Shown: positions 3,478 to 17,176, counted from the first letter of the stretch. The stretch: 25,462 nt of DNA from a virus (IMGVR_UViG_2698536672_000007), one strand, 5' to 3'. The notes: generated by a model not told the origin, from the letters alone. Program-made: numbers and translations.

Positions 3478-3522
3478 AGGGAAAGGTTGCCATCAGGGGA
3501 AGAAAGGCGGCAGTGCTGCAAC

Positions 3523-3542
3523 TTGTATCAGTGCTGATACAA
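3523..3542 (-). promoter_or_regulatory. Candidate late-promoter activator site (TGT-N12-ACA dyad) upstream of V
   Basis: Perfect 20-bp palindrome TTGTATCAGTGCTGATACAA in the 68-bp S-V intergenic gap; it matches the TGT-N12-ACA element that Ogr/Delta-type activators bind at P2-family late promoters. Confidence 0.5.
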
Positions 3543-9495: not shown

Positions 9496-11262
9496 ATGAA
9501 CACCACACTGACACCCGCAGATCTCGATCCCCGTCGGCAGGCCATGCTGCTGTACTTTCAGGGATACCGCGTAGCCCGCATTGCTGAAATGCTGGGCGAG
9601 AAAGTTGCAACCGTTCACAGCTGGAAAAAACGCGACAAGTGGGGTGACTATGGGCCGCTGGATCAGATGCAGCTCACCACCGCCGCACGCTACTGCCAGC
9701 TCATTATGAAGGAGCACAAAGAAGGGAAAGATTTCAAAGAGATTGACCTGCTGGCGCGCCAGTCGGAGCGCCATGCGCGGATCGGCAAGTTTAACAATGG
9801 CGGCAACGAAGCCGACTTAAACCCTAACGTCGCCAACCGCAACAAAGGCCCGCGCCGTCAGCCGGAAAAGAACGTTTTCACCGATGAACAGATTGAGAAG
9901 CTGGAAGAAATCTTCCATTCCTCCATGTTCAACTACCAGCGCCACTGGTGGGAAGCCGGAAAAACCAACCGCATCCGCAACCTGCTGAAGTCACGCCAGA
10001 TCGGCGCGACCTTCTATTTTGCCCGTGAAGCCCTGATTGACGCCCTGCTAACCGGGCGTAACCAGATTTTCCTTTCCGCCAGCAAGGCTCAGGCCCACGT
10101 CTTTAAGCAGTACATCATCGACTTCGCCAAAGAAGTGGAGGTGGAGCTGAAAGGCGATCCGATGGTGCTTCCTAACGGGGCCACGCTGTACTTCCTCGGC
10201 ACCAATGCCCGCACGGCCCAGAGTTACCACGGCAACCTGTATCTGGATGAATATTTCTGGATACCGAAATTCCAAGAGCTGCGCAAAGTGGCTTCCGGTA
10301 TGGCTATTCACAAAAAATGGCGACAAACCTATTTTTCCACGCCATCCAGCCTGACACACAGTGCTTATCCGTTCTGGTCCGGTGCGCTGTTCAACCGAGG
10401 GCGCAACAAAGCCGATAAGGTGGACATCGACCTGTCCCACAGCAATCTGGCCCCCGGCCTGCTGTGCGCAGACGGGCAGTACCGCCAGATAGTCACTGTG
10501 GAAGATGCGGTGCGCGGCGGCTGTAACCTGTTCGACCTCGATCAGTTGCGCATGGAGTACAGCCCGGACGAATACCAGAACCTGCTGATGTGCGAGTTTG
10601 TGGACGATCTCGCGTCCGTGTTCCCGCTCAGCGAGCTGCAGGCGTGCATGGTGGACAGCTGGGAAGTCTGGACCGACTTTCATGCACTGGCTCTGCGCCC
10701 GTTTGGCTGGCGCGAAGTGTGGATCGGTTATGACCCGGCAAAAGGTACGCAAAACGGCGACAGCGCCGGATGCGTGGTGGTGGCACCGCCAGCCGTGCCG
10801 GGCGGTAAGTTCCGCATTCTTGAGCGTCACCAGTGGCGCGGGATGGACTTCCGCGCCCAGGCTGACGCCATCAAAAAACTGACCGAACAGTACAACGTGA
10901 CCTATATCGGTATCGACTCGACCGGCGTTGGTCACGGGGTTTATGAGAACGTGAAAGCGTTCTTTCCTGCCGTCCGGGAGTTTGTCTACAACCCCAACGT
11001 TAAAAACGCCCTGGTACTCAAGGCCTACGACATTATCAGCCACCGCCGTCTGGAGTTTGACGCCGGGCACACCGACATTGCGCAGTCATTCATGGCAATC
11101 CGTCGCGCCACCACCGCCAGTGGCAACCGCCCGACCTATGAAGCCAGCCGCAGCGAAGAAGCCAGCCACGCCGATCTGGCCTGGGCAACGATGCACGCAC
11201 TGTTTAACGAACCGCTGCAGGGCGAATCCGCCAATACCAGCAATATTGTGGAGATTTTTTGA
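9496..11262 (+). CDS. P: Terminase large (ATPase) subunit (P2 gpP-like)
   Basis: 588-aa ORF with ATG at 9496; size and position match P2 gpP; stop overlaps Q start (TGATG). Confidence 0.85.
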   Translation: MNTTLTPADLDPRRQAMLLYFQGYRVARIAEMLGEKVATVHSWKKRDKWGDYGPLDQMQLTTAARYCQLIMKEHKEGKDFKEIDLLARQSERHARIGKFNNGGNEADLNPNVANRNKGPRRQPEKNVFTDEQIEKLEEIFHSSMFNYQRHWWEAGKTNRIRNLLKSRQIGATFYFAREALIDALLTGRNQIFLSASKAQAHVFKQYIIDFAKEVEVELKGDPMVLPNGATLYFLGTNARTAQSYHGNLYLDEYFWIPKFQELRKVASGMAIHKKWRQTYFSTPSSLTHSAYPFWSGALFNRGRNKADKVDIDLSHSNLAPGLLCADGQYRQIVTVEDAVRGGCNLFDLDQLRMEYSPDEYQNLLMCEFVDDLASVFPLSELQACMVDSWEVWTDFHALALRPFGWREVWIGYDPAKGTQNGDSAGCVVVAPPAVPGGKFRILERHQWRGMDFRAQADAIKKLTEQYNVTYIGIDSTGVGHGVYENVKAFFPAVREFVYNPNVKNALVLKAYDIISHRRLEFDAGHTDIAQSFMAIRRATTASGNRPTYEASRSEEASHADLAWATMHALFNEPLQGESANTSNIVEIF

Positions 11263-12311
11263 TGGGAAAGAGTAAGAAGAACCGCGCTGCGGCGACGAAC
11301 CAGATTCAGCATAAAATCCAGACTTCAGCCGAAGCATTCAGCTTTGGCGATCCCATTCCAGTACTGGACCGCCGCGAACTGCTGGACTATGTGGAATGCG
11401 TACAGATGGACCGCTGGTATGAGCCGCCCGTCAGCTTTGACGGACTGGCACGAACCTTCCGCGCCGCCGTGCATCACAGTTCCCCGATTGCAGTAAAGTG
11501 CAACATTCTGACCAGTACCTATATCCCTCATCCGCTGCTCAGCCAACAGGCTTTTTCGCGTTTTGTGCAGGACTATCTGGTATTTGGTAACGCCTACCTG
11601 GAGAAACGCACGAACCGATTCGGTGAAGTTATAGCCCTTGAGCCTGCGCTGGCAAAATACACCCGACGCGGGTTAGACCTGGATACCTACTGGTTTGTGC
11701 AATACGGTATGACAACCCAGCCGTATCAGTTCACGAAAGGCAGCATTTTTCATCTGATGGAACCTGACATCAACCAGGAGATCTACGGCCTGCCAGGTTA
11801 TCTTTCTGCCATTCCGTCAGCCCTGCTCAACGAGTCCGCCACGCTGTTCCGCCGGAAGTATTATATTAACGGCAGTCATGCAGGCTTCATCATGTACATG
11901 ACCGATGCCGCGCAGAACCAGGAGGATGTGAACAACCTCCGCAATGCGATGAAAAGCGCCAAAGGCCCTGGCAACTTCCGCAACCTGTTTATGTACTCGC
12001 CTAACGGCAAAAAGGACGGGCTTCAGATCATCCCGTTGTCAGAAGTCGCGGCGAAGGATGAGTTTCTGAATATCAAGAACGTGAGCCGGGACGACATGAT
12101 GGCGGCACACCGTGTGCCGCCGCAAATGATGGGGATTATGCCAAGTAATGTTGGAGGATTTGGAGATGTAGAGAAGGCGAGTCGAGTGTTTGTTCGAAAT
12201 GAATTAATGCCTTTACAAAAACGATTACAGGAATTTAATGAATGGTTAGGAATTAATATTATCCATTTTGAAAAATATAACTTAATAAACGATGACCCAC
12301 AATCAACATAG
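11262..12311 (+). CDS. Q: Portal protein (P2 gpQ-like) with compositionally atypical 3' end
   Basis: ORF-track start 11259 is TTG; ATG at 11262 (MGKSKKNRAAATNQ...). Portal-like sequence follows P as in the P2 P-Q operon. The last ~55 codons (about 12150..12311) are markedly AT-rich. Confidence 0.85.
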   Translation: MGKSKKNRAAATNQIQHKIQTSAEAFSFGDPIPVLDRRELLDYVECVQMDRWYEPPVSFDGLARTFRAAVHHSSPIAVKCNILTSTYIPHPLLSQQAFSRFVQDYLVFGNAYLEKRTNRFGEVIALEPALAKYTRRGLDLDTYWFVQYGMTTQPYQFTKGSIFHLMEPDINQEIYGLPGYLSAIPSALLNESATLFRRKYYINGSHAGFIMYMTDAAQNQEDVNNLRNAMKSAKGPGNFRNLFMYSPNGKKDGLQIIPLSEVAAKDEFLNIKNVSRDDMMAAHRVPPQMMGIMPSNVGGFGDVEKASRVFVRNELMPLQKRLQEFNEWLGINIIHFEKYNLINDDPQST

Positions 12312-12331
12312 ATAAAGCTTAATAAAGGAGG

Positions 12332-12341
12332 GGGAACCCCT
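12332..12341. repeat. Target-site duplication, left copy (GGGAACCCCT)
   Basis: 10-bp direct repeat immediately flanking the IS186 ends; identical copy at 13681..13690. Confidence 0.75.
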
Positions 12342-13680
12342 CATAAGCGCTAACTTAAGGGTTGTGGTATTACGCCTGATATGATTTAACGTGCCGATGA
12401 ATTACTCTCACGATAACTGGTCAGCAATTCTGGCCCATATTGGTAAGCCCGAAGAACTGGATACTTCGGCACGTAATGCCGGGGCTCTAACCCGCCGCCG
12501 CGAAATTCGTGATGCTGCAACTCTGCTACGTCTGGGGCTGGCTTACGGCCCCGGGGGGATGTCATTACGTGAAGTCACTGCATGGGCTCAGCTCCATGAC
12601 GTTGCAACATTATCTGACGTGGCTCTCCTGAAGCGGCTGCGGAATGCCGCCGACTGGTTTGGCATACTTGCCGCACAAACACTTGCTGTACGCGCCGCAG
12701 TTACGGGTTGTACAAGCGGAAAGAGATTGCGTCTTGTCGATGGAACAGCAATCAGTGCGCCCGGGGGCGGCAGCGCTGAATGGCGACTACATATGGGATA
12801 TGATCCTCATACCTGTCAGTTCACTGATTTTGAGCTAACCGACAGCAGAGACGCTGAACGGCTGGACCGATTTGCGCAAACGGCAGACGAGATACGCATT
12901 GCTGACCGGGGATTCGGTTCGCGTCCCGAATGTATCCGCTCACTTGCTTTTGGAGAAGCTGATTATATCGTCCGGGTTCACTGGCGAGGATTGCGCTGGT
13001 TAACTGCAGAAGGAATGCGCTTTGACATGATGGGTTTTCTGCGCGGGCTGGATTGCGGTAAGAACGGTGAAACCACTGTAATGATAGGCAATTCAGGTAA
13101 TAAAAAAGCCGGAGCTCCCTTTCCGGCACGTCTCATTGCCGTATCACTTCCTCCCGAAAAAGCATTAATCAGTAAAACCCGACTGCTCAGCGAGAATCGT
13201 CGAAAAGGACGAGTAGTTCAGGCGGAAACGCTGGAAGCAGCGGGCCATGTGCTATTGCTAACATCATTACCGGAAGATGAATATTCAGCAGAGCAAGTGG
13301 CTGATTGTTACCGTCTGCGATGGCAAATTGAACTGGCTTTTAAGCGGCTCAAAAGTTTGCTGCACCTGGATGCTTTGCGTGCAAAGGAACCTGAACTCGC
13401 GAAAGCGTGGATATTTGCTAATCTACTCGCCGCATTTTTAATTGACGACATAATCCAGCCATCGCTGGATTTCCCCCCCAGAAGTGCCGGATCCGAAAAG
13501 AAGAACTAACTCGTTGTGGAGAATAACAAAAATGGTCATCTGGAGCTTACAGGTGGCCATTCGTGGGACAGTATCCCTGACAGCCTACAAAACGCAATTG
13601 AAGAACGCGAGGCATCGTCTTAACGAGGCACCGAGGCGTCGCATTCTTCAGATGGTTCAACCCTTAAGTTAGCGCTTATG
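12342..13680 (+). mobile_element. IS186 (IS4 family) insertion sequence, apparently complete
   Basis: 23-bp terminal inverted repeats CATAAGCGCTAACTTAAGGGTTG (12342..12364) and its reverse complement (13658..13680); a single 370-aa transposase ORF; flanked by a 10-bp duplication of a G-run/C-run palindrome, the known IS186 target preference. Confidence 0.85.
12397..13509 (+). CDS. insL: IS186 transposase (DDE, IS4 family)
   Basis: Protein MNYSHDNWSAILAHIGKPEELDTSARNAG... matches the E. coli IS186 transposase as I recall it; ORF-track start at 12391 is GTG, ATG at 12397 gives 370 aa. Confidence 0.9.
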   Translation: MNYSHDNWSAILAHIGKPEELDTSARNAGALTRRREIRDAATLLRLGLAYGPGGMSLREVTAWAQLHDVATLSDVALLKRLRNAADWFGILAAQTLAVRAAVTGCTSGKRLRLVDGTAISAPGGGSAEWRLHMGYDPHTCQFTDFELTDSRDAERLDRFAQTADEIRIADRGFGSRPECIRSLAFGEADYIVRVHWRGLRWLTAEGMRFDMMGFLRGLDCGKNGETTVMIGNSGNKKAGAPFPARLIAVSLPPEKALISKTRLLSENRRKGRVVQAETLEAAGHVLLLTSLPEDEYSAEQVADCYRLRWQIELAFKRLKSLLHLDALRAKEPELAKAWIFANLLAAFLIDDIIQPSLDFPPRSAGSEKKN

Positions 13681-13690
13681 GGGAACCCCT
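13681..13690. repeat. Target-site duplication, right copy (GGGAACCCCT)
   Basis: Identical to 12332..12341; abuts the right IS186 inverted repeat. Confidence 0.75.
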
Positions 13691-13698
13691 CCACATTG

Positions 13699-15891
13699 TT
13701 AAGTACGTAACATAATTTGCTGTTGAACTTGGATAGGCTGTAAGGTTTGATATTTCTGCCTAATTAGGTTATATAAATCCGGCATTTCTTCAGCAGATAA
13801 AGTCACAACAAGAACATATGGTAGTTCTTCTAACTCGTCAACATCAATAGGCATACCACAGTCTCTACCATAGTAGATAATATCAAAGCATGGGTTTGTC
13901 AGCTCATTCGGTTTAAATTTGTGTTCACTTCTTAACGTAGTCTCCCATTTATGTGCATCAACACGTTGCTCATTTTCATCTGCATAAACATTTTTTAGAT
14001 TAAAAAGAGGAAACGTTAACCCGGAACTATCTGAAACACCTTTTCTCATGGTTACTTCTAGACCGCTTCTTGTATAATTCAAAGGATGTTCCGCATCTAC
14101 AGGACTGGAAAAACAGAATGTCGCTCTTAAATTTACACATCCACGCATAGGTACATCTGGAAACGGAATAGGTGCTCGCATGTGTTGTGATGGTTTTAAA
14201 GTACCTTGATATATAACTTTAACTTCATCATCATCACAAAATATTACTTCACTAAGATCATGAGGAAATCGTCCCCAACCAACTTCAGCACGATTGATAT
14301 TATTGCTCTCCGCATGATGTATAAGCAGAGCTTTAGCCGTAAGTGGTGTAATGTTGTAATTTAGAGAAGCACTTAACGCGATTGCTTGCCTCAGGACTAA
14401 TGGAGCAGAAAAGCTAGTCCCCGCAGTGCGGGCAAGACCATTAACCATAGGGCTGTATACCTGGAATGGCTCATCAGAATGTCCTCCAAATGCAACTCCA
14501 TCAGGCTTCACAAAGCCAGGGCTTCGTCCAGGACCAATACAACTGTAAGAACATCTTTCCCAACTATCAGATAAAGAGGTTGCTGCACCTACTGACAGAC
14601 CATTAACTAAATCAGCAGGTGGTTGAATTCGATTTAACCTGGCAGGCAGCTGACCATCATTTCCAACCGCGACAGTACAAAGTGTTTCTCCTGATGCAAG
14701 TATCTCCTCAAGAGTTGAGGTCCACACATGCACGTCATCGTCATCAACAGGTAATCTAGGTCCTAAGCTCAGATTGATATAATCATATTTTTTTTGTTCT
14801 AATACACTTTTAATACGGATCAGAACGTCAAAAAGATCGACATCTGAGTTATTAACATTGGAATCCAGTACACGATAATGGTCAATATTACAATAAGGGA
14901 CACTTAATTTTTCCGTTTCAGAGCCAAGAACACCAAATAACACAGTAGAGGTGACATCCTGTCCATGAGAAAGAAGTTTTGCATTAGTACTAGCATTACC
15001 GTTGAAAGTGTACTCTGTTACCCAAGGATTGAAATCATCGATCCCCAATCCACCATCGAATATGGCAACCTTTATGTGTGGGTTTACCGCTCCTTCAGAT
15101 GGTAAACTAAGGTTAGATGTTTGAATCACAGAACGTGATATAACAGGCTCACTTAGCCTTAATTCAGGAAGTTCTCTCAAAGTCCTGAGAAATGAAAACT
15201 CTGCAACTTTTAAAGCTACATCTTTACTAGCCTTAATAGGCATAAAGGTTAGCCCCTTAACTTTTATACTTCTTGCCTTATCTATAACAGCACCATTTTG
15301 CGAAGCAAAAACTTCAAAACTATCGACAATAGAGGAACTTGTATCAGGAGTATGTAAGGCGACCTCAATACTCATAACTTCATTGCTATTAATCGTTTTT
15401 ACTTTATCTGAAACTTCCAGTATTGAAATATTTTCTAAGGTGACAAAATCATTTTGCTGCCCTTTCGTTAGGGTATCTTGATTTACAGAGTCTAAGAATG
15501 ATTGAAAACTTTCTTTTTTGCCAGAAACATAAATACACGCTGTAGTGTATTCCTCTTTTCGCCCTCTTTTTTTAATATCTTTTCTAGGTTTTACTTTTAC
15601 AGCCTTACTGCCTATGCTTTCTAGGGAAAATCGCTCAAAAAGACTTACTGGAAAATAACTTTTTGCTAAGAATGCCGGATGCAAAACAAATTTTGCTACA
15701 GCCTTACCTTCAGGCATTGCTAACAATGGAAGGGTATTAATTTCCTCAATCAACTCTTCCAGTTGAGCAGATATCACTGGTTTATTTTCTGAATAAGAGT
15801 AAGGTTTATTCTTTTCACCTCCACCTCTGTTAAGTTTAACAGGGTCAGTTAGTGTTTCACCATAGCCAAGAAGCATATTTTTATCATTCAT
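13699..15891 (-). CDS. Subtilisin-like serine protease (MEROPS S8-type catalytic core) with large N- and C-terminal extensions; candidate defence effector
   Basis: Catalytic motifs in D-H-S order: VAIFDGGLG (Asp), LSHGQDVTS (His), YINLSLGP (oxyanion Asn), GTSFSAPLV (Ser). No signal peptide. ORF-track first codon is TTG at 15906; I prefer ATG at 15891 (MNDKNMLLGYGE...), preceded by GAGGA with a 9-nt spacer and overlapping the upstream ATPase stop by 8 nt. Low GC. Confidence 0.75.
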   Translation of the reverse strand: MNDKNMLLGYGETLTDPVKLNRGGGEKNKPYSYSENKPVISAQLEELIEEINTLPLLAMPEGKAVAKFVLHPAFLAKSYFPVSLFERFSLESIGSKAVKVKPRKDIKKRGRKEEYTTACIYVSGKKESFQSFLDSVNQDTLTKGQQNDFVTLENISILEVSDKVKTINSNEVMSIEVALHTPDTSSSIVDSFEVFASQNGAVIDKARSIKVKGLTFMPIKASKDVALKVAEFSFLRTLRELPELRLSEPVISRSVIQTSNLSLPSEGAVNPHIKVAIFDGGLGIDDFNPWVTEYTFNGNASTNAKLLSHGQDVTSTVLFGVLGSETEKLSVPYCNIDHYRVLDSNVNNSDVDLFDVLIRIKSVLEQKKYDYINLSLGPRLPVDDDDVHVWTSTLEEILASGETLCTVAVGNDGQLPARLNRIQPPADLVNGLSVGAATSLSDSWERCSYSCIGPGRSPGFVKPDGVAFGGHSDEPFQVYSPMVNGLARTAGTSFSAPLVLRQAIALSASLNYNITPLTAKALLIHHAESNNINRAEVGWGRFPHDLSEVIFCDDDEVKVIYQGTLKPSQHMRAPIPFPDVPMRGCVNLRATFCFSSPVDAEHPLNYTRSGLEVTMRKGVSDSSGLTFPLFNLKNVYADENEQRVDAHKWETTLRSEHKFKPNELTNPCFDIIYYGRDCGMPIDVDELEELPYVLVVTLSAEEMPDLYNLIRQKYQTLQPIQVQQQIMLRT

Positions 15892-16966
15892 TGTCTTCAT
15901 CCTCAACCGTCAAAACCTTACGTACTTGTGACCTTGAAATCCCCAAATCTAAAGCGATTTTTCTTTGTGATACATTGTTGTTTGACATGTTTTTTATAAC
16001 ATCATCAAGTGACACGCCATCTAACAACTCATCAATTAAAGCTGAACTTAAAGGAATATCTTCTATAATGGCATTTCTTTTAGCTTGATTTATAGCTCTC
16101 TCAAGAACTGCATATGAAACTTTTTCGAGTTTTGTAGCAATATAGTACGATAAGCTATCTCCAATATTTTTAGAACAGAGATATCTTCTCATTAGGTCTT
16201 GTGTTGGATATTCAAAATCAATAACTCGATCGAATCTTCTCCATGCAGCAGGATCAAGCAGCTCCGCATGGTTAGTTGCTGCTATAAGAACAGACGTATT
16301 TGGCCATTCATCAATTGCTTGCAATAATACTGTAACTAATCTTTTTAGTTCTCCAACATCTGTTGCATCATCCCTTTTTTTAGCAATCGCATCAAATTCG
16401 TCAAGAAGCAGTACACAAGGGAATGACGAAGCATAATTGAGGACTGCCTTAATATTATTACCCGTTTTCCCCAAGTAGCTACTCATTACACTTGCGAGAT
16501 CTAATGTTAACAATGGCATATCGAGTTTAAAAGCGAGCCACTTTGCAGCCAAAGTCTTCCCCACACCGGGTGGTCCTCCCATAAGAAGAGATTTGGAGGG
16601 ATGCAACCCTTCTTTATAAAGGCGTTCTTTCATTTCCCACTCAGCCACAAATCGATTCAGTTGAACATCAGTTTTTGTTGGCCAAACAGGTTCAACATCA
16701 ATGACCACAGGATATGTTTCAACTAGCAGCTTTTGTCTTGTATCCGCATCAACAGGTGTTATTTTAGGAACAACTGGATTAGCCCTTTCGACTGCAATTG
16801 CGCCACCCGTATTAATAAGTAAATCTTCTAATTTACCCGCTAATTCAGGAGATTCTTTTTTTAGTTTTTTTGCCATAATCCGCAACCGCATGAGGAGACT
16901 TTCCCTCTTCCCCGTAAGAGCATCACTGACAACATCAATGAGCATTTCGTTTGTAACGTTTATCAT
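15884..16966 (-). CDS. AAA+ ATPase (classic AAA clade) with C-terminal helix-turn-helix; candidate defence sensor/regulator
   Basis: Walker A GGPPGVGKT, Walker B VLLLDEFD, sensor-1 LIAATN, second region of homology AAWRRFDRVI; C-terminal NVSQRKIALDLGISRSQVRKVL resembles a Fis/LuxR-type HTH. ATG at 16966; low GC. Confidence 0.75.
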   Translation of the reverse strand: MINVTNEMLIDVVSDALTGKRESLLMRLRIMAKKLKKESPELAGKLEDLLINTGGAIAVERANPVVPKITPVDADTRQKLLVETYPVVIDVEPVWPTKTDVQLNRFVAEWEMKERLYKEGLHPSKSLLMGGPPGVGKTLAAKWLAFKLDMPLLTLDLASVMSSYLGKTGNNIKAVLNYASSFPCVLLLDEFDAIAKKRDDATDVGELKRLVTVLLQAIDEWPNTSVLIAATNHAELLDPAAWRRFDRVIDFEYPTQDLMRRYLCSKNIGDSLSYYIATKLEKVSYAVLERAINQAKRNAIIEDIPLSSALIDELLDGVSLDDVIKNMSNNNVSQRKIALDLGISRSQVRKVLTVEDEDNE

Positions 16967-17156
16967 CTAACCACCCTTATGGCAAAACCGAACCACTTTT
17001 CAAACAATCATACACCAAAAAAACCTTTTTAAGGTAATTTTGAACCAAAAAAAATATTTTTAGCACCACAAATGCTCAAAACAAAACCAGTGACACTTTT
17101 GTATAACAACTAAAACCACCTATCGACAAAAATTTAGCTAAACCTTTTCAGCGCGC

Positions 17157-17176
17157 GCTCGTATCCCCGCCACGCC
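17157..17176. other. Candidate cohesive-end (cos) site of the P2/186 family
   Basis: Reverse complement reads GGCGTGGCGGGGATACGAGC; the first 13 nt match the G-rich core I recall for P2/186 cohesive ends (GGCG[A/T]GGCGGGGA...). Recalled, not searched. Confidence 0.4.

Follow-up and report, generated by a model that had tools for sequence, protein, structure and literature searches.

How does an insertion sequence come to sit in the hairpin behind a phage defence operon, and what becomes of that hairpin afterwards? The question is posed by a stretch of viral DNA of 25,462 nucleotides (IMGVR_UViG_2698536672_000007), hereafter the window, which comprises most of a 186/P2-like E. coli prophage. 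Our analysis indicates that the locus very probably records a recent, ordinary transposition of IS186 (IS4 family, transposase InsL) into the terminator stem-loop of the ietA-ietS operon, in the cos-proximal cargo slot of the prophage. The features on which the argument draws are collected in Table 1.

Table 1. Features of the prophage window around the IS186 insertion, in window coordinates.
Feature	Position	Strand	Basis
Late genes	up to 9353	-	Pfam; annotation of a near-identical prophage
Terminase ATPase gene	9496-11262	+	Pfam; annotation of a near-identical prophage
Portal gene (P2 Q / 186 W homologue), 349 aa, intact	11262..12311	+	Pfam Phage_portal
T-tract TTTATTAAGCTTTAT (A-rich on the + strand)	12312..12326	-	sequence and terminator scans
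Rebuilt portal-side hairpin GAGGGG-TTC-CCCCTC, including the left duplication copy	12328..12342	-	scan 12342->12328
IS186	12342..13680	+	inverted repeats; 0 differences from K-12 IS186A/B/C
insL transposase gene, 370 aa; same strand as the portal gene, convergent with ietS	12397..13509	+	PF01609
Terminator-like hairpin in IS186, GCCGGAAAGGGAGCTCCGGC and TTTTTTATTA	13098..13127	- (antisense to insL)	scan and folding
Right duplication copy (13680-13691) and last C, ietS-proximal remnant	13680..13692	-	3-bp stem, without T-tract
ietS, S8 serine peptidase, 730 aa, intact	13699..15891	-	PADLOC IetS E=1.4e-48; Pfam Peptidase_S8
ietA, AAA ATPase, 360 aa, first gene of the operon	15884..16966	-	PADLOC IetA E=6.7e-84; Pfam AAA
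cos-like GGCGTGGCGGGGATACGAG, right limit of the variable cassette	17158..17176	-	sequence; compared with P2 cosL

The insertion lies between two convergent genes, described in a first-pass annotation as Q and a protease gene and confirmed here as the Q-like portal gene and the gene of an S8 peptidase. The portal translation ends in ...NDDPQST*, the gene being the last of the terminase-portal late operon, and its homologue is annotated 'phage portal protein' in L001, which carries an IS-free allele of the locus, and in L002 (strain Ecol_AZ147). On the other side, ietA and ietS share a strand and overlap by 8 nt. This adjoining operon had earlier been put forward as a candidate for defence; it matches a recognised system by PADLOC profiles and, to judge from these matches, is IetAS, a described anti-phage system. 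Beyond ietA the minus strand carries a DinI-like gene, a replication endonuclease and a Dam methylase, with CI and integrase at the right end of the window. Plus-strand ORFs at 11-975 were considered as cargo and set aside; they lie where the tail-fibre gene (minus strand) runs off, have no Pfam match and are probably spurious.

The limits of the cassette can be read from its flanks. Homology to other 186-like prophages ends near position 12289 (approximately), which is 22 nt short of the portal stop codon, and homology to P2/186-like phages resumes at about 17150, at the cos-like GGCGTGGCGGGGATACGAG; across the cassette the G+C content drops from about 0.55 to 0.33-0.45. This places the hairpin in the cargo cassette, outside the phage backbone. 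Between the same portal and cos/A flanks, two other loci (L014 and L015) hold PIN/HEPN cargo. For the ietAS cassette no megablast-level match was found among 50,697 deposited phage records. We also considered the hairpin as part of cos and rejected this: at a tolerance of 3 mismatches the P2 cos 19-mer was not found in the window, and a 186-like variant of cos lies to the right of ietA, so that cos is not in the portal-ietS spacer.

The inserted element is a complete IS186 of 1339 bp (1337 bp when its ambiguous terminal C/G is counted with the target). It can be identified as IS186 because it shows 0 differences over 1339 bp from K-12 IS186A, IS186B and IS186C and encodes an intact InsL identical to K-12 InsL1. 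The product of insL, the sole ORF of this copy, is a DDE_Tnp_1 protein (Pfam PF01609, E=1.6e-26), and megablast returns 2725 E. coli records with copies of at least 99% identity, annotated IS186B/IS421. All defining features of IS186 that can be examined in sequence are present in this element, a complete copy that is presumably active. Its inverted repeats CATAAGCGCTAACTTAAGGGTTG at 12342-12364 and 13658-13680 are identical in 23 of 23 positions, and an exact direct repeat of 12 bp, GGGGAACCCCTC, is found at 12331-12342 and 13680-13691. Thus the earlier assignment to IS186 holds on exact alignment, both for the ends, which align with the IS186 termini, and for the repeat, which is present on both sides; the interval first proposed, 12327-13695, brackets both hairpin halves and ends 3 nt beyond the last C, at 13692. 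The length of the duplication depends on convention, being 12 bp (GGGGAACCCCTC) or, when the 23-bp inverted repeats are counted as IS, 10 bp (GGGAACCCCT). Both its length and its register are the same as at the three K-12 copies.

Within the element, a further inverted repeat (12389-12402 / 12461-12474) spans the insL ATG; we mention as speculation that it might limit the translation of transcripts reading in. A PADLOC scan of the transposase yielded no defence family. A promoter scan of the region found no sigma-70-like promoter pointing outward from IS186, and the creation of a promoter by IS186 is not proposed here.

The sequence before insertion can be recovered directly. Removal of IS186 and one repeat gives AATAAAGGAGGGGGAACCCCTCCACATTG, exactly as written in the first-pass reconstruction, and this sequence occurs verbatim in nine complete genomes and four IMG/VR contigs. 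A 1200-bp query of the empty site is matched at 100% from end to end in E. coli ChlosBP-23-1 (NZ_CP048603.1) and at 96.8-99.8% in 8 more complete E. coli genomes, all of these genome matches being annotated 'phage portal protein | S8 family peptidase'. In the four contigs the uninterrupted hairpin stands in the same context. Across the ietS flank the window differs by 4 nt over 3.3 kb from the IS-free allele in L001. The comparison with IS-free homologous prophages, which had been suggested as a check, thus returns the uninterrupted palindrome as the pre-insertion sequence.

This palindrome, GGAGGGG-GAA-CCCCTCC as previously described, reads on the minus strand of the empty site as GGAGGGG-TTC-CCCCTCC followed by TTTATTAAGC and starts 6 nt past the ietS stop codon. 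It forms a 7-bp stem with 6 G-C pairs and a 3-nt loop (-12.3 kcal/mol), is terminator-like in a consensus scan and is the sole structure in the 38-bp convergent spacer between the portal gene and ietS. We infer that it is the intrinsic terminator of the ietAS operon, in line with the earlier proposal of a minus-strand terminator. Since the plus strand of the hairpin lacks a U-tract (ACAUUGUU), it could at best stop portal-operon transcripts weakly, although the plus-strand RNA can lengthen the stem.

The palindrome could also be non-functional as a terminator, for instance a scar of cassette exchange, so that the IS would have had no notable transcriptional consequence. We regard this as unlikely. 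In its favour, the U-tract is imperfect, being interrupted after 3 U (UUUAUUAAG), which leaves the strength of the terminator uncertain; shuffled 17-mers of equal composition fold nearly as well (z = -1.7), and the 7 terminator-like hits in the region, compared with 4.7 +/- 2.4 expected from shuffles, are not significant overall. Rfam shows nothing at the hairpin, and at gathering thresholds it detects no RNA family anywhere in the window. Against this stand the position of the hairpin immediately behind the last stop codon of the operon, as the only structure in the spacer, and the organisation of the same slot elsewhere. The unrelated cargo in L014 ends with a different hairpin of its own, AACGGCATCA-N3-TGATGCCGTT, with the T-tract likewise on the cargo strand, and in P2 a terminator, tQ, is annotated at the matching position behind Q, with the T-tract on the Q strand. 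IS186 is also found in terminators of other loci: IS186C of K-12 lies in the bidirectional terminator of nupC, and a Serratia copy of IS186 in a similar site.

The choice of target follows from what IS186 recognises. Work of SaiSree and colleagues from 2001 reportedly gives a looser form of the target, at least four G, N3 and at least four C, which the window site also fits. From 59 new insertions the motif was defined as 5'-GGGG(N6/N7)CCCC-3', a rare sequence with 54 sites in K-12, and 7 of the 59 sites carried one or two mismatches to it; insertion took place in either orientation, and certain sites received many insertions (Lee et al. 2016, PMC5009759). Taking the IS as ATAAG...CTTAT, the target in the window is G|GGG GAACCC CTC|C, i.e. 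GGGG(N6)CTCC, one mismatch from GGGG(N6)CCCC. This deviation counts against the proposed explanation, since no more than 7 of those 59 sites departed from the motif. The same register is seen at the three K-12 copies, whose 12-bp duplications GGG-N6-CCC lie within GGGG-N6-CCCC, and about 16 further distinct IS186 end flanks in the reference-genome collection read CTTAT|GGG-N6-CCCC. At the window site this register is 1.5 bp off the centre of the hairpin, because the loop is only 3 nt long. The site had been called a known type of IS186 target, which stands; the register, however, is that of GGGG(N6)CTCC and not the hairpin's own GGGG-N3-CCCC symmetry. The window is thus a natural example of strict GGGG-N6-CCCC targeting by IS186.

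In the 24.1-kb window after removal of the IS there is no exact GGGG(N6/7)CCCC. N6 sites with one mismatch number only five, two of them in the hairpin, which also contains the single GGGG-N3-6-CCCC site of this stretch; it is therefore the best IS186 target there. The G-run and C-run arms of the hairpin form the motif selected by the IS186 transposase, and the duplication GGGGAACCCCTC arose from a staggered cut of 12 bp, or of 10 bp under the alternative convention. More generally, the GGGG-N6-CCCC motif frequently falls on the G/C stems of intrinsic terminators.

We then considered the fate of the hairpin at the two ends of the element. Of the 17 bases of the hairpin 12 are duplicated, which makes the two junctions unlike each other. 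On the portal side the hairpin is rebuilt beside the T-tract because the duplication covers most of the palindrome: 6 of 7 pairs are kept (-9.0 kcal/mol), with CTTTATTAAG directly after on the minus strand. In RNA terms GAGGGG-UUC-CCCCUC stands directly before CUUUAUUAAG, the IS-proximal outer G-C pair is gone, and the scan calls the structure terminator-like. On the ietS side the minus-strand RNA GGAGGGGUUCCCC-AUAAGCG retains a 3-bp stem (-4 kcal/mol) without a U-tract. The first-pass view that the insertion had separated the T-tract from its hairpin is therefore not borne out, as the rebuilt 6/7-pair hairpin abuts the T-tract and it is the ietS-proximal copy that is destroyed. With the portal-side copy rebuilt and the ietS-side copy lost, the operon now lies 1349 bp from a largely intact terminator.

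Loss of the ietS-proximal hairpin would let ietAS transcripts run into IS186, so that read-in antisense to insL is plausible from the sequence. On the strand of the ietS transcript the element contains a hairpin at 13127->13108 with a stem of -9.8 kcal/mol, which would probably stop such antisense read-in after about 570 nt; mapped intrinsic terminators in E. coli overlap IS186 according to a preprint. The ietAS transcripts would accordingly be expected to end at this hairpin or at the rebuilt hairpin with its T-tract, and late transcripts from the terminase-portal operon that pass the rebuilt hairpin would, in the orientation of the window, enter insL in the sense direction. As anticipated at first pass, the insertion leaves the coding sequence of the operon intact: the translations of IetS and IetA, and likewise those of the portal and InsL, run without interruption. 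Portal, transposase and defence proteins would thus be unchanged, and the net effect, most likely close to neutral, would be that the 3' UTR of ietAS is extended and the prophage gains 1.35 kb of DNA.

Other genomes, too, contain IS186 at this position. Using split matches to the empty-site query we found two complete genomes, Ecol_AZ147 (L002) and Eco_23-3571 (L003), that carry IS186 at the identical base pair with the identical duplication, inverted relative to the window. Ecol_AZ147 contains an intact prophage. Eco_23-3571 shares with STEC308 a common degraded prophage remnant with the same pseudogenes, and its flanks show 0 differences from the empty allele of STEC308 (1.5 kb and 3.3 kb; 4.8 kb in total). 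The occupied junction gave 0 matches in IMG/VR and 0 in metagenome contigs. In a small sample of about 16 alleles, some of them clonal (STEC306/STEC307/STEC308) and counted irrespective of whether the host genome contains IS186, three are occupied. The opposite orientations alone argue for at least two events, and the inverted copies, whose occupied alleles lie on two flanking haplotypes, suggest about three independent insertions. This is the most economical reading of the sampled alleles and would make the site a natural hot spot.

A single ancestral insertion, spread by homologous recombination and inverted in place to give the second orientation, would require no hot spot; we consider it highly improbable. 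Being sequence-identical, the three IS copies say nothing about whether the hits were independent, and in the vicinity of the IS the window and Ecol_AZ147 share one haplotype. In principle, the pair formed by Ecol_AZ147 and Eco_23-3571 could also result from a short tract of gene conversion. However, the 4.8-kb match of Eco_23-3571 to an empty allele goes together with differences from Ecol_AZ147 as near as 172 bp to the left and 126 bp to the right of the IS, the window copy is opposite to both, and no efficient route is known by which a 1.3-kb element would flip between 23-bp inverted repeats. Moreover, for IS186 it is on record that one site may be hit repeatedly and in either orientation (PMC5009759). 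Misplacement of an IS186 repeat in the assembly of the source genome, apparently a draft, would be of concern since IS elements are frequent places of mis-joins. Such an artefact is practically out of the question here, given the perfect 12-bp duplication of the exact empty-site sequence at both junctions and the two complete genomes with IS186 at the same base pair.

Recurrence of this kind might also reflect selection, for example if the insertion cut ietAS from its terminator, insulated it from late-operon transcription, or enlarged and crippled the prophage, to the advantage of the host. Compatible with this idea are the three occupied alleles, probably independent, in a sample of about 16, the repeated hits at a site with one mismatch to the motif, and two host prophages that are already degraded remnants retaining ietAS. 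Yet the site specificity of IS186 by itself predicts recurrence (PMC5009759), both orientations occur although their transcriptional effects differ, the terminator is largely rebuilt at the far junction, and surviving insertions in a non-coding spacer are the residue expected from purifying selection. An advantage of the insertion is thus quite improbable. The related proposal that occupancy of this landing pad is non-neutral and selected, coupling IS186 transposition to induction or defence transcription or tuning the dosage of IetAS, is in our judgement very improbable. If true, it would involve removal of the ietS-side terminator together with read-through into insL from the late operon in the orientation of the window, or from ietAS in the opposite orientation. 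We therefore retain an ordinary, target-directed transposition of IS186 into the operon terminator as the explanation of this locus.

This is known biology, in that the element, the target rule and the recurrence in two orientations are all documented for IS186; the only points beyond the literature examined are this particular site and the unequal outcome for the two copies of the hairpin. With it, one natural IS186 hot spot that was previously unlisted is added, in a cassette for phage defence. The finding is of little consequence outside annotation, where the reconstruction from sequence alone proved right. In practical terms, STEC308 (empty) and Eco_23-3571 (occupied) form an isogenic pair that can be used to gauge the effect of losing the gene-proximal terminator in a defence operon, and short-read assemblies of prophages with the IetAS cassette are expected to break here, with contigs ending at CATAAGCGC.

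Comparison with known systems places both the cassette and the insertion. P2-like phages have a cos-proximal hot spot of variable anti-phage cargo, bounded by the replication gene A on one side and by Q, the portal gene, on the other (Rousset et al. 2022, PMC9122126). The window prophage occupies this hot spot, with IetAS as cargo between cos and the portal gene, in contrast to P2 itself, which carries tin and old on the A side of cos. The hot-spot literature examined, including PMC9122126, makes no mention of IS insertions in it.

With respect to the element, IS186A/B/C of K-12 (IS421; IS4 family) and the window copy have the same bases, inverted repeats, InsL, duplication length and insertion register; only the location differs, the window target reading CTCC where the consensus has CCCC. 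The IS186 hot spots documented in the lon promoter, fimA and menC (SaiSree et al. 2001, as cited in later work; Lee et al. 2016) likewise consist of a GGGG...CCCC palindrome hit repeatedly at the same base and in both orientations. Those cases, however, were recorded under laboratory selection or in mutation-accumulation lines, and most of them knock out a promoter or a gene, whereas the hot spot described here occurs in natural isolates, within the cargo cassette of a prophage, where neither coding sequence nor promoter is disrupted. Similar to the window insertion is IS186C at nupC, which also lies inside the G/C stem of a hairpin flanked by A/T runs, AAAAAAGCCGGGG-ATAATT-CCCCGGTTTTTTT, behind the final gene of a transcription unit. 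While the nupC site is an exact and symmetric match to the consensus, the window site has a 3-nt loop and an off-centre register; owing to this short loop the insertion falls beside the centre and the junctions are unequal, one hairpin being rebuilt and the other destroyed.

Among the prophages that carry the ietAS defence cassette, the cassette itself is 99.6-99.9% identical (window 13681-16966), while the adjoining portal genes of the same prophages diverge by 2.4-6.4% (window 10842-12341; in both cases compared with loci L001-L003 and L007-L009). The near-identity of ietAS beside more diverged portal genes suggests that the cassette has spread recently across diverged prophage backbones. 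Intact ietAS is also kept at the ybjL/rcdA locus of several hosts, within degraded prophage remnants in which the tail and D genes are truncated and the terminase is frameshifted. Such a remnant has the appearance of a defence locus domesticated by its host.

Towards its 3' end, over the final ~60 codons, the portal gene becomes AT-rich (G+C ~0.37-0.43, window 12130-12311). Its similarity to other 186-like prophages breaks off 22 nt short of the stop codon, as seen against the prophage with unrelated PIN/HEPN cargo in the same slot (L014 6486-6546). The portal is therefore eight codons longer than in other 186-like prophages (349 vs 341 amino acids), and the AT-richness together with the homology break places the cassette boundary within the portal 3' end. 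The portal strand lacks a tQ-type terminator. The portal gene end is flanked, immediately ahead of the hairpin, by the two copies of an imperfect direct repeat of 18 nt, which may have been left by cassette exchange as a scar or may serve as its substrate.

Features of the cassette region and of related loci
Feature	Coordinates	Strand	Remarks
Cargo cassette	window 12290-17150		
Cos-like 19-mer	window 17158-17176	minus	GGCGTGGCGGGGATACGAG
Imperfect direct repeat, 18 nt	window 12275-12292 and 12312-12329		ATATAACTTAATAAACGA / ATAAAGCTTAATAAAGGA; 83% identity
Terminator-like hairpin (good) inside IS186	window 13098-13127	minus	T6 run; antisense to insL
Inverted repeat in IS186, 14 nt	window 12389-12402 / 12461-12474		spans insL start codon
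Remnants with intact ietAS	L001 8162-12570; L003 5459-11632; L007 1-4570		

Within IS186, the internal hairpin and the inverted repeat at the start codon could both shield the element from outside transcription. Exact IS186 ends were also found on short contigs from assemblies assigned to Marinobacter, Kocuria, Streptosporangium, Aerococcus, Corallococcus and further genera (L018, L022, L024, L027, L030-L032, L034-L036). Since L018 (Marinobacter), L027 (Kocuria) and L032 (Streptosporangium), at a minimum, have the flanks of K-12 IS186A or IS186B, these assemblies look contaminated with E. coli K-12 DNA.

The otherwise collinear Ecol_AZ147 prophage (L002) carries an additional 1290-nt plus-strand gene for a hypothetical protein between the baseplate V and virion-morphogenesis genes (L002 531-1820), which is missing from the window (compared at 3482-3540) and thus defines a second variable slot.

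The cos-like 19-mer is flanked by ietA and the DinI-like gene, so that the cargo is placed between the portal gene and cos. The arrangement in P2 is different: the cargo genes tin and old are found across cos, towards gene A, and the distance from cos to Q is just ~160 bp plus the terminator tQ.
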